From Bacteroidetes bacterium ADurb.Bin174 (lineage in GTDB: Bacteria; Bacteroidota; Bacteroidia; Bacteroidales; Paludibacteraceae), in NCBI GenBank assembly GCA_002070265.1, contig MWCX01000088.1:34389-98388 (forward strand): DNA of 64,000 nt, written 5' to 3'. Below the pieces are notes generated by a model. The model had not been told where the DNA came from and made no database searches. It worked only from the letters and a program-made list of their open reading frames with translations. Positions 37,487-45,253 of the stretch are shown here, one piece after another (the stretch's first letter is position 1; the number at the start of each line of letters is the position of its first letter). The position numbers and the translations under genes are program-made.

Positions 37487-38245
37487 ATGAAAAAACTCCT
37501 TTTTATAATTTGCTTTTGCATCGGTGCATCCGCACTATTTTCTCAAGACCTGAAAAAATTATCACTGAGCTTCTACGGTGGAGCCAAAATTCTCTCACCA
37601 TCTTTGAATGAAGATTGGCCTATACGTCAGGATGTAAGTTATGGCTACTATGGTGACGAATTTAATGCTCAGGTCAACCTGAATGGAGATATTGCTTATT
37701 TTGGTGTTTCTCCCGAATATCTGATCAACAAAAATTGGTCAGTCGGTTCAGGCCTACGATTTTCGAGATACCTGTCATCCATCATAAAAGACGATTATGA
37801 TCGCGGAGGCTTCTTTTTCCTAAGAGTTAGTCAGGAGGATGAAAGAACTGATTTTGCCCGCATCAGAGCTATCAAAGAAAGTTCGAATTATATAGGAATT
37901 CCTTGGGAGGTAAAATACACTCCCCTGGTGCTTCGCTATTTTGATTTGCATGCCAAACTCACTGTAGAACTCGCCTATCGACTGAACACCCATACAGACA
38001 TTGAGTTTAAGGATGAGGCGATGAAAGCTTATCAAAAGGACGTTCTGCGTGATATAGGTGTAAAAGCCAATCCGTGGTTTTCAACCACTTCTTTGTCTGC
38101 AGGAGCAAGGCTGAAATTGTCAAAGCAAGTTTACTTCTCATGTGATTGGGTTGCACCGGCTTTTTACATAACAAAAAACAACTCAAGCCTGGTGAATGTC
38201 AATAATCTCGGGGGATTTCAATTGTCGATAGACTGGGTATTATAA
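37487..38245 (+). CDS. Hypothetical outer-membrane beta-barrel protein (porin family-like)
   Basis: Signal peptide, amphipathic strands, YIGIP motif and a terminal aromatic-type strand LSIDWVL. Confidence 0.6.
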   Translation: MKKLLFIICFCIGASALFSQDLKKLSLSFYGGAKILSPSLNEDWPIRQDVSYGYYGDEFNAQVNLNGDIAYFGVSPEYLINKNWSVGSGLRFSRYLSSIIKDDYDRGGFFFLRVSQEDERTDFARIRAIKESSNYIGIPWEVKYTPLVLRYFDLHAKLTVELAYRLNTHTDIEFKDEAMKAYQKDVLRDIGVKANPWFSTTSLSAGARLKLSKQVYFSCDWVAPAFYITKNNSSLVNVNNLGGFQLSIDWVL

Positions 38246-38264
38246 AATAGTTAAATTAAAAATT

Positions 38265-38876
38265 ATGGAAAAAAGAAGATATATACACTTTGTTGCCCTG
38301 ACTTTGGCTGTTGCAGCAATCATGAGTTCATGCGCATACGACTCATACGAACTTAGCAAAACCGTATTCATACCTGATTATGAAAACCCGGGATTGCCCA
38401 TTTATTCGGAATGGGGATACAATACCTTTGGTATGTACGTCGACCGCTCAACTTTTGTATCAACTGACCATATATTACCAAGCAAGATCATCGTGAACCC
38501 CGATACTTTCAATATCAGATTAAGTGGTATTTACCAAAGTGTCTCTACAACCTTGCTCATTTCAGTGGTCGGTTATGCCCCAAGAGATTATCCTGATTTA
38601 ATCAGTTTGAATGATTCAACCATCAATTTAAGAGACGACAATTGCATCATTACCCTGAGAAAATTCTCCGAAGAAGCCGTTAAGCTTCCTATTATCGAAG
38701 GCTACATCAATTTTAAAAAGGCTCAAAATTTATACGTAGATAAAGAGTTGACCAAAACGATCCTTTCAGGCACCATCCAGTTCAAAACATTTTTCGATGG
38801 CGAACCTGTGGCAATCACGAATGGCCGGTTTGATCTGGGGATAGGATATGAGAATTTTTATTATTATACAAGATAA
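38265..38876 (+). CDS. Hypothetical lipoprotein
   Basis: Lipobox MSSC; beta-rich; ends GRFDLG, as seen in Bacteroidota lipoproteins. Confidence 0.65.
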   Translation: MEKRRYIHFVALTLAVAAIMSSCAYDSYELSKTVFIPDYENPGLPIYSEWGYNTFGMYVDRSTFVSTDHILPSKIIVNPDTFNIRLSGIYQSVSTTLLISVVGYAPRDYPDLISLNDSTINLRDDNCIITLRKFSEEAVKLPIIEGYINFKKAQNLYVDKELTKTILSGTIQFKTFFDGEPVAITNGRFDLGIGYENFYYYTR

Positions 38877-39059
38877 AATCCCCCAGGAACAATAGCACCC
38901 CCTACACTCATTTCGAGTTTACACTCTCAAAGTTTAAACAAATAAGGATATTCGTTTAAATTCAAAAACTGACCCGCTACTTTTTTCAATGAAGTGCAAG
39001 ATACTGCAGGAAGTGAAGACAGCAGCAGTAGAAAAATGGTTTGTTTGTTTGAATTCACG

Positions 39060-39125
39060 ATTTTTACTATGTCTTTGAAGAACAAGCCTTCTTTCGTATT
39101 CTGCCGGTAAGATTTCTATTTGCAT
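39060..39125 (-). pseudogene. Possible 5' remnant of an integron-type tyrosine recombinase
   Basis: MQIEILPAEYERRLVLQRHSKN resembles the L.R.YS.NT start of the IntI/phage-integrase N-terminal SAM-like domain; divergent from the att-like site; the similarity is lost after about 22 codons. Confidence 0.35.
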
Positions 39126-39240
39126 TTTTTATGCTTATGTGAATTTAATCATTTGTAAACGCAAATGATGTTTAATCAATTTAAATTGTTGTATTTAGTT
39201 GATTTATAGGTGCATATAGAATTACTGCTGAAATGATATG

Positions 39241-39307
39241 CGAATGTTATAAATTTTATATTTACGAATGTTTTGTATATTTGTTTCGTAAATTAAACGT
39301 TAGCGGG
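39241..39307 (+). promoter_or_regulatory. attI-like/promoter element ending at the cassette core GTTAGCGGG
   Basis: CGAATGTT direct repeat, TTTACGAA/TTCGTAAA inverted repeat around TATATTTG (-7 box), then GTT at 39299; 56/61 identical to 44463-44523. Confidence 0.6.
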
Positions 39308-39370
39308 TATGCTATGAAAGACAGTGAAGAAAATAATAATCAAACTAAGAATAGACATGTTTAATCGATT

Positions 39371-40654
39371 ATGACAGAAATAGAACTCTTTGCAAAACAT
39401 TATTTTGGGTTAGGATTAAATGTTACTTGCATTAGCAATCGAATCAATGAACACAACTTCTATTGCAGAAATATCCTCAAAACTCCAAACCATAAATGGA
39501 AACATCTTTTTACTCAAAGACAACTACAAACAGAATTTCAAAAATACGAGTGGGACTCAGCGACAGGTGTAGGATGTGTTACAGGTTTTCAAGATTTGCG
39601 TGTTATTGATATTGACGGTTGCAATGACTACAACTTTTTAGATGAAGTTTTAGCACTATTAGAATTACCTACGAACTACGAGTGGGTTACTTTATCGGGC
39701 AGTAAAAATGGATTTCACATTTTTATTAGTAGCAATAAATTTTCCTACCTTAACGAAAGTCAAGTTGTAACAACATTCCCTCCTAAGGAAGAATATAAAC
39801 ACAAACTTGAAAAGGTTGAGATACTTTGGAATACCCATGTTGTTTTACCACCATCTATTCACAATTCAGGTAATTCATACAGCTTCATAAATTGCAAGTA
39901 TCCTAAATCACTTCCAAAAGTCGTTAAGCATCGAAAAGTTTCAAGTTTTATTGACAAATATCTGCAAGCTGAAAAAAAAATAATTGGACGAGGTTATGGA
40001 GAAGTTCTATTTGAGTTCATTCCACCCAATATCCCAAGTAACCTTGATGAAGATGATGTTTCACGATTAGAAAACAAAACCATCATTTGTGTTTTGGATA
40101 TTGAAACTGATGGCTTACCAAGAAAAAATTTAGTTTCAATTGAATATCCAAACGTGGTTCAAGTTGCTTGGTTGCTAATGGACACAGACGGTAATATTTT
40201 CAAAAAAGAATCAGACCTAATCAACTATCCCAACATTACTTATACAGAGGCATTTGCCGTGAATCAGATTGACATTAACCTTGTCAAAAGAATAGGTAAA
40301 CAACCCGACGAAGCATATAGGAAACTAATCAGTGATATAAAAATTTCTGATTTCATTGTTGCTCATAATATTGATTTTGATTTACCAATATTACGGAGTC
40401 AATTAAAAAAATATCAAGTGCAAGACCCTTTCAGTAGCAAGAAAACAATTTGCACAATGAAGGAAACAATAGATTATTGTAATATTCCAAACTTTGATGG
40501 ACGAAACAAGTTCCCAAAATTGACTGAACTCTACAAAAAACTATTTGACTACGATATTGAGCAAAAACATAATGCGGAATCAGATGCTTTTCTTACGGCA
40601 AAATGTTTTAAAGAGTTATTGACTAAAGGAATTATTGATTTAGACAATTACTAA
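39371..40654 (+). CDS. Fusion of a bifunctional primase-polymerase (AEP, Prim-Pol) and a DEDDh 3'-5' exonuclease
   Basis: AEP motifs LRVID80ID82, SGSKNGFH116 and VVLPPSIH.SG..Y; exonuclease motifs LD243IE245TDG, AHNIDFD337 and H400NAESD405. Confidence 0.85.
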   Translation: MTEIELFAKHYFGLGLNVTCISNRINEHNFYCRNILKTPNHKWKHLFTQRQLQTEFQKYEWDSATGVGCVTGFQDLRVIDIDGCNDYNFLDEVLALLELPTNYEWVTLSGSKNGFHIFISSNKFSYLNESQVVTTFPPKEEYKHKLEKVEILWNTHVVLPPSIHNSGNSYSFINCKYPKSLPKVVKHRKVSSFIDKYLQAEKKIIGRGYGEVLFEFIPPNIPSNLDEDDVSRLENKTIICVLDIETDGLPRKNLVSIEYPNVVQVAWLLMDTDGNIFKKESDLINYPNITYTEAFAVNQIDINLVKRIGKQPDEAYRKLISDIKISDFIVAHNIDFDLPILRSQLKKYQVQDPFSSKKTICTMKETIDYCNIPNFDGRNKFPKLTELYKKLFDYDIEQKHNAESDAFLTAKCFKELLTKGIIDLDNY

Positions 40655-40685
40655 TATTCAGATAAAAAAATAATTAATTCAACCA

Positions 40686-42206
40686 ATGACATTAGTTGAA
40701 AAACATTTTAAAAAGACAGCAAAACTTGTTAGAGCTATTGACAAGAAAGTTATTGCCGAATGGTTATTGACTGAAGGTTATTTTCCTGAACAGTATGTGT
40801 TGCCACCGTCCTTTTCGGTGACAGACTTTAAACTCAAAACCAAACCTTACAATAAAAACCTCAATGACCCTGCAAGAAGAAAGCTTGTAACTATTTCATA
40901 TCCTAAATCACTTCTGACTTCAAGAGTTTTTGGCATCCAACATCCATTTAACTATCATGACATTGTGTTTCATTTGATAGAAGATTGGAAAATTGTTGTT
41001 GACCACATTTTTCATAATGACCTTAAAATATTCTCATATAGTTTTCCTATACCGGTAAATGCAAAAGCAATTGGGAAGCTAGGCAATCTTCGTTCAGGAA
41101 GAATGATTTATGAATGGGTTGAAATGGCGGAAAAAGATATGGTAGCAGAAGCACATAAATATAATTTTATCATTCGTGCTGACATTACCAATTTTTACAA
41201 TTCAGTTTATACACATAGCATTGGTTGGGCTTTACATGGCAGAGAAAAAGCATTTGCCGACAAGGAGTTTAAACTAACAGGGAATAAAGTTGATAAATTA
41301 ATTCAATATGCTAATGACGCAAGGACCAATGGCATTCCAGTTGGTTCAGCACTCAGCGACCTTATTGCTGAAATAGTTCTTACGAGTATAGACAGAAAAG
41401 TATCTTCAAAACTTAAAACAATTAACTTTGTTGGCAGTCGCTTTAAAGATGATTACAGAATTTTATGCAACAGTGAAGATGAAGCTAAAAAAATTCTCAA
41501 AGTGCTTTCAGACGAATTGGTTGAATTTAATTTGCTAATAAACGAACACAAGACAAAGGTTCTTACACTTCCAGACGGACTTTACAGACAACATGATAGA
41601 GAATATCACAATTATTCTCTGAAAGACAAGGAAGCTATACCTTTTAAAACTTTTGAATTAACTCTTTTAAAAGCACTTGACATTCATAAAGCTTACCCAG
41701 GGACAAGTATTCTTGAAAAGTTTTTCTCTGAATTATACGACAACGACAGCAAGCTCAAAATTCAATTTTCAGCTGACAATAACGCAAGGAATAAACAAAT
41801 TTTGAAAGCAATGAGTCTGCTAATGTTGGTTAAACGAGAATCAGAAAAAACTCTGTGTCATGTATTAGCAATCTGTGAAGAGATTTATATAAAATATCGG
41901 TCTCCGAAATTGAAAGAAAAGTTGAAATATTTAATTGAATCTGAGATTGTTAAAGCATCAAACAAAAAATCAGCATTTGAACTAGTTTGGTTAGTATTTT
42001 TTTCTCGTTATCTATCTCTTGGACTAACGACCTTTTCAAAAATGATTGATAAGGAACTAATGGAAACAGCATTTTTAAAATCAGTAATTTCAAGTGAGCA
42101 AAAGTTCTTTAATGACTCAAAGCAAAAACTATTTTTGAAACCCAAAGATTGTAAAACAAAAACTTTATCAAAACGACTTGCAGTATTCGACAGAAATAAG
42201 GAATAG
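40686..42206 (+). CDS. Abi/UG-type (defence-associated) reverse transcriptase with a helical C-terminal extension
   Basis: GYFP..LPP.F, YPK...R, AD166ITNFYNSVYTHSIGWA, GIPVGSALSDLIAE, RFKD255D256Y and L.IN..KT; about 210-aa helical tail. Confidence 0.9.
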   Translation: MTLVEKHFKKTAKLVRAIDKKVIAEWLLTEGYFPEQYVLPPSFSVTDFKLKTKPYNKNLNDPARRKLVTISYPKSLLTSRVFGIQHPFNYHDIVFHLIEDWKIVVDHIFHNDLKIFSYSFPIPVNAKAIGKLGNLRSGRMIYEWVEMAEKDMVAEAHKYNFIIRADITNFYNSVYTHSIGWALHGREKAFADKEFKLTGNKVDKLIQYANDARTNGIPVGSALSDLIAEIVLTSIDRKVSSKLKTINFVGSRFKDDYRILCNSEDEAKKILKVLSDELVEFNLLINEHKTKVLTLPDGLYRQHDREYHNYSLKDKEAIPFKTFELTLLKALDIHKAYPGTSILEKFFSELYDNDSKLKIQFSADNNARNKQILKAMSLLMLVKRESEKTLCHVLAICEEIYIKYRSPKLKEKLKYLIESEIVKASNKKSAFELVWLVFFSRYLSLGLTTFSKMIDKELMETAFLKSVISSEQKFFNDSKQKLFLKPKDCKTKTLSKRLAVFDRNKE

Positions 42207-42219
42207 ACAAGAAGCACGA

Positions 42220-42353
42220 CCCGCTAACAGGCGTTTGGCTCAATGGCGGGTGACGTGGTTAATTGAACATACTTACTCGCATCAACTTTTGTGGTGTATT
42301 GACAGTTTTGCACTCCGAAATCCGCCACTGCGCCAAGCGCCAAAACGGTAAAT
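42220..42353 (+). mobile_element. attC-like recombination site closing the Prim-Pol/RT cassette
   Basis: CCCGCTAAC lies 13 nt after the RT stop and is the exact reverse complement of 39299-39307; 20-nt arms 42230-42249 and 42322-42341 have 3 mismatches; the end GGTAAAT is one change from GTTRRRY. Confidence 0.7.
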
Positions 42354-42429
42354 GCCATGCGGTCATTTTAACAAAAAGAAAAATTTGTATTTTTACTAAA
42401 ACCATCAAATAAGAACAAACAAATTTTTT

Positions 42430-42617
42430 TATGCCGCACGGTATTTACCCCAAACCATTGGGTGCAAGTATAGCAAAACCTACCAACGAAAGCGATTGGT
42501 AGCCATAAGAGTAATAGCAGTACGACAACCCTTGACAACGCAAAATTCACGAAATCAGAACCCTTGCAGAGTAACTGGATAAAGAGCTTGCAAAAGTCGA
42601 GAAGAAATATGCATTAA
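42430..42617 (+). pseudogene. Decayed small ORF (possible second cassette gene)
   Basis: Protein-like fragments in different frames (HWVQV*QNLP, RLVAIRVIA, QRKIHEIRTLAE*LDKELAKVEKKYA) separated by stops and frameshifts. Confidence 0.3.
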
Positions 42618-42619
42618 TC

Positions 42620-42660
42620 CATCATCAAGTGGGAAAAACCCACTTGATGATGTTGTTTTT
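42620..42660 (+). terminator. Intrinsic terminator
   Basis: Perfect 14-bp stem catcatcaagtggg/cccacttgatgatg followed by a T-rich tail. Confidence 0.85.
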
Positions 42661-42725
42661 TAGATTAAAATGTTATTTTAATTCTTTTTTTATGCAATTT
42701 TGCGGAAAATTAGAAGTAAATAAAA

Positions 42726-42911
42726 ATGAAATTTTGGCAATTAAGAAATCAATTTTACGACTTGATATGTTTCAATATAAATCAAGTTTATGCGTGGCAA
42801 CCTGGTTTTGATAAAAACAATCTCACTCGTTGGGTAAAACAAAATTTGCTCGTAAAATTGCGTAATTCGTGGTATAGTTTCCCGGATTATGTAAAGATGT
42901 CTGTCTCATAA
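42726..42911 (+). pseudogene. Truncated AbiEi-like (type IV TA antitoxin) N-terminal winged-helix gene, cut by a MITE
   Basis: CFNINQVYAWQPGFDKNNLTRWVKQNLLVKLRNSWY resembles the AbiEi N-terminal HTH; the stop TAA is supplied by the inserted GTCTCATAA end. Confidence 0.55.
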
Positions 42912-43006
42912 GTGCCCAACTGCTGTGCTTCGACTTCGCTCAGCAACCACGTTACTTTCGATGGTTGCTGAGCCTGTTGAAGCACGGGCTCAGTCACATA
43001 CTTCAA
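42902..43006. mobile_element. MITE-like copy carrying a nested REP-like palindrome
   Basis: tgtctcataagtgcccaactgctg...cgggctcagtcacatacttcaa aligns with the reverse complement of about 18503-18563; extra arms at 42926-42949 and 42963-42984. Confidence 0.75.
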
Positions 43007-43165: not shown

Positions 43166-43465
43166 TTACATCAATAACACGCCGCTGATTTTTGAGACGA
43201 ACAGCACCAAATAGATCAACAGACCCGTTATAATGATTATGGTGAAAATCGCGAACACTAGCCCCAGGCAGCCCCATTTACGTTTCCCGTCGGGGAGTTT
43301 GTCAAACAAAAGCGTTATCAATAACCCTATGAATGGAGTAGTCAATATTGAAAACAGATAGGACCATCCGAAACCTATCTTCCTACGCGCTCCCACCAGG
43401 CCTACCAACACTGAAATCAGCGAAAAAGATATAACACCAAATATCAAAAGAGTAGCAGTTATCAT
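43166..43465 (-). CDS. Small hypothetical membrane protein
   Basis: 99 aa with three hydrophobic segments; G.RRKIGFGWS motif; ATG start. Confidence 0.65.
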   Translation of the reverse strand: MITATLLIFGVISFSLISVLVGLVGARRKIGFGWSYLFSILTTPFIGLLITLLFDKLPDGKRKWGCLGLVFAIFTIIIITGLLIYLVLFVSKISGVLLM

Positions 43466-43598: not shown

Positions 43599-43727
43599 GG
43601 TGTCTCAAAAGTGTCCATATGTGAGACTCTAAGATTGAGGACTGTAGAGGAAGACTTGCGCGTCTGCCCTCGGTGACTGAGCTCAAATATCGAAAGTAAC
43701 GAAGCAGTTGGGCGCTTATGAGACACC
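43599..43727. mobile_element. MITE-like element with 13-bp terminal inverted repeats
   Basis: GGTGTCTCAAAAG ... CTTATGAGACACC (1 mismatch); interior homologous to 18447-18565. Confidence 0.8.
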
Positions 43728-43842
43728 GACCAATACCGACAGAAATGCAACAAAAACATGAAAAAGCAATGACAAGTTTCGGAAAAAAGATACTTATCTT
43801 GGAAGAAACATTAACTTTGCGCCTGGATTAAATATCAAAATA

Positions 43843-44289
43843 ATGAAAAAACAACTCAAAATAGCCTTGGTAGCACACGATGCACGCAAGGCAGACATGG
43901 TAGAATGGGCAGTTTTTAACTCGGATATGCTTTCGCAGCATAAACTAATTTGTACGGGAACTACCGGCGGGCTGATACAGAAAGCCTTTGAAAATGAAGG
44001 AATAGAAGTAGAGGTTGAACGTAAAAACTCCGGTCCGATGGGTGGCGATGCCGAAATTGCTGCAATGGTTGTGAACAAACAAATAGATTTTTGCGTGTTT
44101 TTGATAGACGACCTAAGCGCAAATCCGCACGAAGCTGACATACAGATGCTTTTACGTCAGTGCCGTATTCACAATATCCCAATAGCCTGCAACCGTTATA
44201 GTGCAGATTTGATGATTACCAGTCCGCTGTGGGACAATGATGAGTATGTGCCGAAAGACCCGCAATATATTCCTTTTCATCGTGAATAA
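43843..44289 (+). CDS. mgsA: Methylglyoxal synthase
   Basis: IALVAHD..K, TGTTG, SGPMGGDAEI, PHEADI and NIPIACN motifs. Confidence 0.96.
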   Translation: MKKQLKIALVAHDARKADMVEWAVFNSDMLSQHKLICTGTTGGLIQKAFENEGIEVEVERKNSGPMGGDAEIAAMVVNKQIDFCVFLIDDLSANPHEADIQMLLRQCRIHNIPIACNRYSADLMITSPLWDNDEYVPKDPQYIPFHRE

Positions 44290-44341
44290 ATATTGCGGTT
44301 TCCGACAGATTATATTACATTTGCGGTCTCAAAATATCCAT

Positions 44342-44412
44342 TGACTTATGGTGTAATGGTAGCACTACAGATTCTGGATCTGTCTGTCTAGGTTCGAATC
44401 CTAGTAAGTCAG
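44342..44412 (+). tRNA. tRNA-Gln (anticodon CTG)
   Basis: Acceptor stem TGACTTA/TAAGTCA, anticodon arm ACAGA-TTCTGGA-TCTGT, T-arm CTAGG-TTCGAAT-CCTAG; upstream TACATTTG at 44316. Confidence 0.95.
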
Positions 44413-44425
44413 CAAACTCTCCTTC

Positions 44426-44447
44426 CAATTTCCCGTTCCGGGAAATT
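44426..44447 (+). terminator. Hairpin after tRNA-Gln
   Basis: aatttcccg-ttc-cgggaaatt. Confidence 0.6.
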
Positions 44448-44462
44448 AAATGAATTGATACA

Positions 44463-44523
44463 CGAATGTTTTAAGTTTTATATTTACGAATGTTTTGTAT
44501 ATTTGTTCCGTAAATTAGATGTT
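44463..44523 (+). promoter_or_regulatory. Second copy of the attI-like/promoter element
   Basis: 56/61 identical to 39241-39301, ending at GTT. Confidence 0.6.
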
Positions 44524-44596
44524 TTGTATGTGCAACAGCAAAAAACAAAAGACGCACAACTCTATTTATCAAAAAAACATTTCAAACAAAAATTAT

Positions 44597-45253
44597 ATGA
44601 AAGCCTTTTTTCTAATTCCTCTATTATTGTTTTTTCCAATCATTTCAATATTCGGTCAAAGCAATCCAAACCTTTTTTTGGGTTTTGAAGTTATTGAACT
44701 TCAACAGAACTCATTTAAAAATTTAGGAAAAAACAACTATACCTTCTTTATTGGCACATCATTTCCTATAAATGAAAAAACTCTATGGGGAGGACGTATT
44801 ACAAGTATGAATGTGGAACTGAGCGAAAAACATCTGCAAGAGCCATCGCCTGTTTATAAGGGTGATTTTAAAGGAGTTACAGGAAATCTGAATGTTCAAC
44901 GAATTTATTTGGATTACTATTACAGATGGAATCTCAACTTTTTGTGGATTGAACCAATTTTTTCAGTCGGTATTGGATACAACAACTGGAAGTTTTACAA
45001 CAAAATTGTTGATGAATCCTATGATCTTAAGACAGCTAGTTTAGGTGTTTCAGGTAAAGTCAGGTTTACATTTTTTAAATATCCTTTCATTGAAATACCA
45101 TCTTTGGATGTGTTCGGCTTCATATATAAAAACAGAAACCCGGAAGAAATGCTTGGAGACGCACATATTGATTTTTGGAAAAGAGGAGGTGTTTTTAACT
45201 GGATCTTTATTGGTTGCAACATCCCTCTCAATAAGCTCGGAAAGCAACCCTAA
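44597..45253 (+). CDS. Hypothetical outer-membrane beta-barrel protein
   Basis: Signal peptide MKAFFLIPLLLFF..., alternating aromatic strands; the stop TAA lies inside CCCTAAC. Confidence 0.65.
   Translation: MKAFFLIPLLLFFPIISIFGQSNPNLFLGFEVIELQQNSFKNLGKNNYTFFIGTSFPINEKTLWGGRITSMNVELSEKHLQEPSPVYKGDFKGVTGNLNVQRIYLDYYYRWNLNFLWIEPIFSVGIGYNNWKFYNKIVDESYDLKTASLGVSGKVRFTFFKYPFIEIPSLDVFGFIYKNRNPEEMLGDAHIDFWKRGGVFNWIFIGCNIPLNKLGKQP

Follow-up and report, generated by a model that had tools for sequence, protein, structure and literature searches.

Is the reverse transcriptase (RT) locus of Bacteroidetes bacterium ADurb.Bin174 a captured gene cassette, and if it is, can the cassette still move? The locus lies in a 64,000-nucleotide (nt) stretch of contig MWCX01000088.1 (the whole stretch is called the window here), which belongs to an assembly of 2.95 Mb that is 95% complete (G000). 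A sequence-only reading of the window had proposed that an RT gene and its partner are packaged as a two-gene cassette of a little-characterised Bacteroidota integron-like system, and that a changed core may have frozen the cassette in place. We find that positions 39300–42347 very probably form one two-gene cassette, which stands first on a small and decayed platform belonging to an integron-like system of gene capture, and that this system is widespread in Bacteroidales. The anatomy of the locus, the family to which its hairpin belongs and the contexts in which the cassette occurs agree with the first part of that proposal, and the recombinases linked to the system are IntI/Xer-like and lack the IntI-specific insertion.

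The cassette and its genes

The cassette is made up of the following parts, numbered from the first position of the window.

39300–42347, plus strand: the cassette by integron convention, 3048 base pairs (bp), starting at the TT that follows the G of attI and ending at the G of the cassette's R′ core
39299–39308, plus strand: 5′ core GTTAGCGGGT, the cassette-borne R′ half, an exact reverse complement of 42219–42228
39371–40654, plus strand: gene 1, a 427-amino-acid (aa) fusion of a PrimPol (archaeo-eukaryotic primase (AEP) primase-polymerase) and a DEDDh 3′–5′ exonuclease (Pfam, PADLOC)
40686–42206, plus strand: gene 2, a 506-aa RT of group UG14 (Abi-like; PADLOC, Pfam)
42219–42353, plus strand: attC-type site, with the extended R″ core ACCCGCTAAC at 42219–42228, arms at 42230–42249 and 42322–42341, and a partly conserved centre
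42347–42353, plus strand: non-canonical R′ core GGTAAAT, with the crossover position at G 42347

The two ends of the cassette are tied together by their cores. The pair noticed by the sequence-only reading, GTTAGCGGG at 39299–39307 and its reverse complement CCCGCTAAC at 42220–42228, is correctly placed, and exact complementarity is longer than the 9 nt it gave, spanning 10 nt from GTTAGCGGGT (39299–39308) to ACCCGCTAAC (42219–42228). This 10-mer is present twice within the window, once per strand, where shuffles predict 0.02 occurrences, and a chance origin of the complementarity is ruled out. The RT stop codon (42204–42206) precedes CCCGCTAAC by 13 nt, and the 134-bp palindrome at 42220–42353 was recovered as described, with 20-nt arms (42230–42249 and 42322–42341) that differ at three positions and a terminal GGTAAAT (42347–42353). 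Two other loci of the same genome, on contigs C16 and C70, have their own exact 10-nt pairs, which differ in sequence and are each followed by a homologous palindrome, and a cassette on contig C44 has a core pair identical to that of the window. GC content is 0.29–0.35 in the cassette and mostly 0.33–0.48 in its flanks.

Gene 1 matches the Pfam families Prim-Pol (2e-09) and RNase_T (1.9e-04) and the PADLOC model for DEDDh (3.6e-22). Gene 2 matches the PADLOC model RT_UG14 over residues 2–503 of 506 (E = 9.3e-211), with Drt6, Drt4 and AbiP2 as runner-up models, and RVT_1 in Pfam (1.8e-14); in this full-length match it resembles the UG14/Abi-like RTs (AbiK, Abi-P2, DRT4/UG15 and DRT6/UG12; Mestre et al. 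2022, PMC9226505). A defensive role of UG14 is only predicted, from its enrichment in defence islands (PMC9226505), and the two genes together are, judged by their sequences, a predicted anti-phage module. A PrimPol-DEDDh partner for UG14 is not described in the main text of Mestre et al. 2022 (PMC9226505), and a close variant of the RT, unlike that of the window, occurs without this partner. This variant (P0003, in L042–L046) is a UG14 RT with 89% nucleotide identity and no PrimPol-exonuclease gene, and it adjoins a helix-turn-helix protein and type I restriction-modification genes; likeness to the window stops directly after the R″ core, and the flanks carry ~85-nt palindromes starting ..CTACTAAC, which the 134-nt model does not match. 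The RT is rare in Bacteroidales (2 of 201 genomes). A search of named genomes returned a broken RT alone, without an attC, in a metagenome-assembled genome labelled Candidatus Kuenenia; this UG14 fragment (L018, 5001–5752; 77% identity over residues 1–242) follows a 991-aa open reading frame (ORF), and the contig may be mis-binned.

Hairpin sites, cassette rule and changed contexts

The palindrome at the end of the cassette belongs to a large family of sites, whose copies were found by BLAST, nhmmer and a covariance model based on 21 of them. The ~134-nt hairpin has 31 copies in this assembly, that of the window included (covariance model E = 1.3e-23), and is present in 37 of 41 related genomes, at up to 70 per genome. 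Its copies stand in co-oriented series, with 29 sites within 57 kb of the complete genome G006, 13 one-ORF cassettes in 9.3 kb of G031, and further series on the short contigs C74, C91, C54, C44, C49, C5 and C16; contigs frequently stop tens of nt past a site, as is expected because repeats break assembly. Homologues of the palindrome flanking unrelated genes, which the sequence-only reading had proposed to look for in this genome and its relatives, are many, and the genes include type I and type III restriction-modification, DISARM and others.

The statement that such arrays stock defence genes also holds in this genome, where the cassettes are mostly defence systems. On contig C38, an attI-type copy and an attC enclose a 10.7-kb unit with DISARM DrmA/DrmB, and further cassettes carry type I and type III restriction-modification, a type IIG methylase with an Snf2/HKD helicase, PDC-M16 (a PADLOC candidate defence system) and a DpdF/PsyrT-like helicase; one carries a secreted C10 protease and its inhibitor.

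In the 21-site alignment an AAC near the 5′ end is invariant and the stem measures ~19 bp, with compensatory changes in 17 of the 19 stem pairs; it is therefore the pairing that is conserved, and not the sequence of the arms. In the consensus stem, two symmetric 1x1 internal mismatches recur at fixed positions, and there is no consistent bulge. One of these mismatches is a near-invariant A/C on the top strand that would be G-T on the bottom strand, and symmetric mismatches of this kind would suit an enzyme that lacks the helix by which extrahelical bases are read. The attC of the window is 94% identical to that of an unrelated type III methylase cassette (contig C6, 3429–3557) and far less like that of a homologous RT cassette in another contig (L047, 9849–9982), chiefly in the conserved centre, a pattern which suggests that sites become homogenised within a genome.

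In integrons the crossover falls at G^TT, which places the TT-proximal part of a cassette's core at the start of the inserted cassette; this part pairs with the inverse core of the attC that belongs to the same cassette. To test this rule, 29 pairs of successive sites were taken from this genome and five relatives, and the 7 nt that follow the GTT of the first site were compared with the reverse-complemented 7 nt that precede the AAC of the second. On average 6.07 of 7 positions agreed, with at least 6 in 23 of the 29 pairs, compared with 2.91 ± 0.24 for shuffled partners (maximum 3.90 in 2000 shuffles). The complementarity between an inverse core and its cassette's own 5′ core, which the sequence-only reading had pointed out for the window, is complete there (10 of 10 nt) and holds across the family.

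The same cassette also stands in other contexts. L047, a 60.7-kb metagenome contig, has both genes at 93% nucleotide identity (shared stretch 39295–42323), with the 3′ arm of another attC upstream of the GTT in place of attI, and the attC that follows its genes differs from the window's in its stems, in a compensating manner, and closes with an intact GTT (GTTGTAA). Logan contigs from runs X20 and X18 likewise start at 39295/39296, with an attC-like arm before. L049, a 4557-nt strain contig that is 99.96% identical to the window over 37863–42347, covers the flank, the attI, both genes and the attC with only two mismatches (42311 and 42317); past G 42347 it reads TTGGGCGTAATGC... (GTTGGGC), where the window reads GTAAATGCCATGC... 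(GGT AAATG). L049 parts from the window exactly at the crossover; in a near-identical strain the triplet is therefore the canonical GTT, and another neighbour follows downstream. Precise differences at G^TT junctions, which had been named as the mark of gain or loss in related sequences, are thus present in both L047 and L049: the same cassette has moved between contexts, and strains are polymorphic exactly at G^TT. Apparent joints in run X16 were not used, their sides being under 30 nt at 90% likeness. Metatranscriptome-derived sludge contigs (runs X24, X26 and X28) span both genes (window 39322–42236), which is weak evidence of expression given possible DNA carry-over; X28 matches exactly, and X24 and X26 represent a ~98% variant with an L047-like attC.

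The platform and the array-linked recombinases

Upstream of the cassette lie the remains of a platform.

39229–39301, plus strand: attI-type site with built-in promoter, 73 nt, ending in the crossover triplet GTT at 39299–39301
38934–39125, minus strand: 63-aa ORF, likely the stump of a recombinase N-terminus, divergent from the attI-type site

The attI-type element contains two CGAATGTT direct repeats and an inverted repeat, TTTACGAA (39261–39268) and TTCGTAAA (39285–39292), inside which a TAnnTTTG box (TATATTTG, 39276–39283) is found that we take to be the Bacteroidetes −7 promoter motif. The element has seven copies in the genome, and their homology always ends ..AYGTT and gives way to unrelated sequence. 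In G019, a genome of the same genus, the same element lies ~100 nt from, and divergent to, an intact gene for a 280-aa tyrosine recombinase, and beyond it come two ORFs and an array of five cassettes bounded by attC sites, so that the layout of recombinase gene, attI-type element with TAnnTTTG box and co-oriented cassettes is seen there in full. The 63-aa ORF of the window starts MQIEILPAEYERRLVLQRHS and the G019 recombinase starts MEIHSFINQFERSLRIQRYS (8 of 20 residues identical, E = 0.03, aligned from residue 1 to residue 1), and the spacing from ATG to GTT is 174 nt in the window and 180 nt in G019; judged by this likeness, the ORF is a probable recombinase stump. A stump is also present at the paralogous C16 locus. 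There (L032, 33000–42000 of C16) a further mgsA (96% identity at the amino-acid level) and a stretch sharing 86% identity with window 43774–44460, in which aragorn detects no tRNA, are followed by the stump, an attI-type element and two multi-gene cassettes; the locus could be a duplication or a co-binned strain.

Nine tyrosine recombinase genes are present in this genome. Besides XerC and XerD, the only simple recombinase is a 301-aa protein on contig C91, which is flanked by attC sites and ~37–39% identical to the array-linked recombinases of relatives, and a recombinase fragment on contig C54 adjoins an array. Five relatives (G006, G019, G025, G031 and G038) have a homologue of 280–555 aa beside or close upstream of an array. 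The array-linked recombinases all have SAM-like and catalytic domains, with 'XerA / integron integrase' and integron-integrase as their best models and archaeal XerA as the best match in PDB. Their scores with the integron-integrase model TIGR02249 are 181–220 bits against a cut-off of 265, model positions ~180–250 being skipped, and alignment to VchIntIA (PDB 2A3V) omits residues ~180–246, which contain the IntI-specific insertion (the I2 helix). No match to TIGR02249 above the cut-off was found in the 41 genomes, the complete G006 included, and partial matches stop at about model position 180, one of them at 201. Since the array recombinases are without I2 and no canonical IntI was found in the 41 genomes, we describe the system as integron-like and not as a canonical integron. 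The recombinases of G006 (L013, 10431–12098) and G025 (L017, 2936–4567) measure 543–555 aa and have an N-terminal extension of ~280 aa, in which a motif (..RI.VDF.YN....ARWS.TL..WHIPYT..) is repeated and which has no Pfam match; this extension may be a DNA-binding module that replaces I2. The attI of these two genomes lies downstream of the recombinase gene and consists of an inverted repeat followed by GTTAGG or GTTAGT.

In the mechanism that we propose, by analogy with integrons, a tyrosine recombinase would exchange strands at G^TT between the attI-type site (39229–39301) and the folded ~134-nt attC-type hairpin. An inserted cassette would then open with that half of its R′ core which lies nearest the TT (GTTAGCGGGT) and close with the complementary R″ core (ACCCGCTAAC) and the hairpin, and the Bacteroidetes-type promoter of the attI-type element could transcribe a cassette that has no promoter of its own.

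Much of this layout is shared with sedentary chromosomal integrons such as the superintegron of Vibrio cholerae (VchIntIA, attIA and attC sites of the V. cholerae repeat (VCR) type), in which the recombinase gene also adjoins an attI-type site with an outward promoter, the cassettes are co-oriented, mostly promoterless and each end in a ~130-nt imperfect palindrome, and AAC...GTT cores, the G^TT crossover and an inverse core complementary to the cassette's own 5′ end are all found. In contrast to these integrons, the recombinases here lack the I2 helix, fall below the model cut-off and in some cases carry an N-terminal extension of up to ~280 aa; symmetric mismatches take the place of clear extrahelical bases in the stems, and each site has a partly conserved centre; the cassettes are often large and multi-gene, up to ~10 kb, and several attI-type copies are dispersed. 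Defence systems that form cassettes and are expressed from the platform promoter are also the subject of a preprint by Darracq et al. 2024 (10.1101/2024.07.02.601686), which deals with canonical integrons of Vibrio and its relatives and whose text mentions no RTs or defence-associated reverse transcriptases (DRTs), whereas here the cargo is a UG14 RT with a PrimPol-exonuclease on a non-canonical platform. Like a cluster of attC sites lacking integrases (CALIN) or a degenerate terminal integron cassette, the locus is a short platform without a working integrase and with a damaged core in its last site; unlike a CALIN, it retains an attI-type site and promoter and has a single attC. Xer modules and integrative mobile elements exploiting Xer (IMEXs), such as pdif and the CTX phage, are alike in their simple Xer-like tyrosine recombinase without I2, and folded single-strand substrates are known for the CTX phage (PMC7790495). 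In place of their 28-bp dif-like XerC/XerD sites, however, the boundaries here are a 73-nt attI-type element and a 134-nt hairpin, with one long hairpin per cassette, co-oriented arrays and a dedicated recombinase gene beside the array.

The gain of the I2 helix is held to be the key innovation that lets an Xer-like enzyme recognise folded attC, or single-strand, sites (PMC7790495), and the IntI insertion is described as 'not fully conserved' in an integron-like subgroup of a tyrosine-recombinase classification (PMC8138268). Surveys that define integrons through an I2-bearing integrase record almost none in Bacteroidetes (PMC9024848). The 2024 preprint on defence cassettes places Bacteroidota among the clades without integrons (10.1101/2024.07.02.601686), and in the literature that we searched we found no description of these arrays. 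Here the full signature of cassette capture (covarying hairpins, the G^TT rule, a promoter-bearing attI, arrays and changed contexts) stands beside recombinases without I2. Should the recombinases be correctly assigned, then cassette recombination can do without the insertion or this architecture has evolved on two occasions; in both cases, environmental Bacteroidales hold a large pool of mobile cassettes that has so far escaped counting. We think it probable that integrons include a second class, without I2, in which this cassette is a functioning component and which serves as a Bacteroidales-wide store of large multi-gene anti-phage systems. If this is true, Xer/IntI-like recombinases handle folded attC-type hairpins without I2 by means of other determinants, namely symmetric hairpins with conserved centres and, in many members, the repeated N-terminal domain, and standard integron finders would miss the class. 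The locus also offers a defence candidate, the UG14 RT with its PrimPol-exonuclease, in a defined and compact 3-kb unit with a promoter.

Rival readings, mobility and neighbouring sequences

Other origins of the palindrome and of the cassette have to be weighed. Placed 13 nt after the RT stop, the palindrome could be the RT system's own template or scaffold non-coding RNA (ncRNA), as in retrons, DRT2 and DRT9, or a terminator, with the core complementarity incidental; several RT defence systems do require a structured ncRNA. However, the other 30 hairpins of this family in the genome stand after unrelated genes, the L047 RT cassette has an attC with different, compensating stems, the L042 RT variant has no such hairpin, the cassette rule holds family-wide, and an Rfam scan of 36–46 kb returned tRNA-Gln only (Rfam contains no attC family). 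The only structured element found with the RT is the attC, which is common to unrelated cassettes and not specific to the RT as in retrons, and we judge this origin very improbable. Hardly credible at all is the view that the hairpins are repeats of the repetitive extragenic palindromic (REP) or miniature inverted-repeat transposable element (MITE) type, or the terminal inverted repeats of a transposon. The genome is indeed rich in other short repeats, for example at 42902–43000, yet the hairpins occur as one site per cassette, co-oriented and in register with gene ends, and their core pairs are specific to each cassette and still complementary; there is no transposase, the arrays adjoin a dedicated tyrosine recombinase, and context shifts exactly at G^TT. 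An ordinary canonical integron cassette or CALIN, served by an I2-bearing IntI that was missed, would account for the attC-like architecture, the G^TT rule, the promoter-bearing attI and the defence cargo, all as in sedentary chromosomal integrons, and one paper states that integrons are detected in Bacteroidota (PMC9668308). We consider this very unlikely: among the 41 genomes, 37 of them with sites, no TIGR02249 match passes the cut-off, the array recombinases are without the insertion, the 1x1 mismatches are symmetric with no obvious bulged bases, and IntegronFinder surveys found almost nothing in Bacteroidetes, namely In0 (integrase-only) elements and one complete integron, in Salinibacter (PMC9024848).

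The integron-like cassette, which we prefer to these alternatives, has several points to contend with. The evidence that its cassettes move as units is natural variation between contexts and strains, and the enzyme is assigned by adjacency. This 95%-complete genome has no intact recombinase of the type linked to attI in G019, and the match of the stump is weak (E = 0.03). None of the 14 control genomes in the IntI search has an integron, and that search hence has no positive control. Seven dispersed attI-type copies per genome are unlike a classical integron, and the 7-mer cores (CGCTAAC and GTTAGCG) fit RYYYAAC/GTTRRRY only loosely. Folding of the window's site as a single sequence, which the sequence-only reading had suggested as a check, gave an unremarkable energy on either strand (z = −0.3 and −0.8) because ~70 central nt are unpaired; the argument for structure therefore draws on the covariation among sites. 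A circular cassette was not seen among assembled contigs, which hide rare forms.

On balance we lean towards the view that the cassette is no longer mobile at this locus, as the sequence-only reading had proposed. The adjacent recombinase stump, the GGT in place of a near-invariant GTT and the identity of the locus across metagenomes all point that way. In the 21-site alignment GGT occupies the position where 19 sites carry GTT, and among 48 complete sites the triplet is GTT in 45, TTT in two and GGT in that of the window only; at one of the TTT sites a simple G-to-T change precedes a cassette start that is known elsewhere. GGT is identical in eight independent metagenome contigs, drawn from different samples, that carry the identical cassette and is therefore no sequencing error. 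We caution that these eight contigs were selected for an identical RT, and so are no proof of immobility. The strand is cut between G and TT in integrons; if the same cut holds here, the changed base adjoins it and breaks one AAC/GTT box pair. It is plausible that the GGT core blocks excision, and domestication of the cassette is plausible too, given the damaged core and the decayed platform. The contrary view, that the cassette is real and not frozen, with GGT tolerated or other partners used so that it is still mobile in the species, is quite possible. The left junction (the GTT of attI) is intact, the right junction has clearly been recombined recently, since the conspecific L049 differs exactly there, the two TTT sites indicate that triplet variants persist in arrays, and a recombinase gene survives on contig C91. 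Set against continued mobility are the prevalence of GTT and the closeness of the changed base to the presumed cleavage point, together with the adjacent recombinase, of which only a stump is left, and the context of the RT, which is shared by all eight contigs with no empty site found. An excised or empty form, with attI joined to the downstream sequence, was absent from Joint Genome Institute (JGI) metagenome contigs, and no orthologous empty locus was obtained from relatives, flank synteny being poor within the genus.

The GGT need not be the simple GTT-to-GGT substitution that had been assumed, because the sequence after the G also differs from the GTT-bearing strain variant; recombination at a non-canonical partner is equally possible. 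The triplet may have arisen by a point mutation in a former GTTAAAT, or it may stem from exchange with a non-canonical partner or from a deletion between similar attCs, and the two mismatches at 42311 and 42317, clustered before the junction, are a hint in favour of exchange or deletion. A second copy of the downstream sequence, sought in order to decide between these origins, was not present among the sequences compared. The natural allele pair of GGT in the window and GTT in L049 is a ready-made test of the bases that the recombinase needs.

Two further features lie downstream of the cassette.

42354–42900, plus strand: post-cassette sequence, similar to a cassette 5′ leader (GCCAT...TTTTAACAAAAAG), without a recognisable gene and ending in a hairpin (42620–42652) and genome-wide REP-like repeats
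44451–44523, plus strand: second attI-type copy, 89% identical, 38 nt after tRNA-Gln (44342–44413), with TTGTATGTGCAAC after its GTT

Site searches, the covariance model included, gave no attC match in 42354–42900, and the 60- and 61-aa ORFs 3′ of the attC have no Pfam match. No attC was found downstream of the second attI-type copy, which may be an empty attI; its TTGTATGTGCAAC resembles GTTGTGTGCAA, which is found after attI in G019 and on contig C21. That contig (L041, 20876–22364) has two attC sites and, downstream of them, a pair of attI-type copies separated by 1.5 kb, with no recognisable attC after either copy. The 241-aa ORF (44528–45253) after the second copy in the window has no family match in Pfam. 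An island integrated at tRNA-Gln between the two 73-nt repeats was considered and rejected, because the repeat occurs seven times and each time ends at GTT. A very abundant short repeat (TGTCTCATAAGTGCCCAACTGCT...), with dozens of copies in the genome, occupies 42902–43000 and 43600–43730 of the window in inverted orientation, and a 99-aa membrane-protein ORF (43166–43465, minus strand) sits between the inverted TGTCTCATAAGTGCCCAACTGCT copies.

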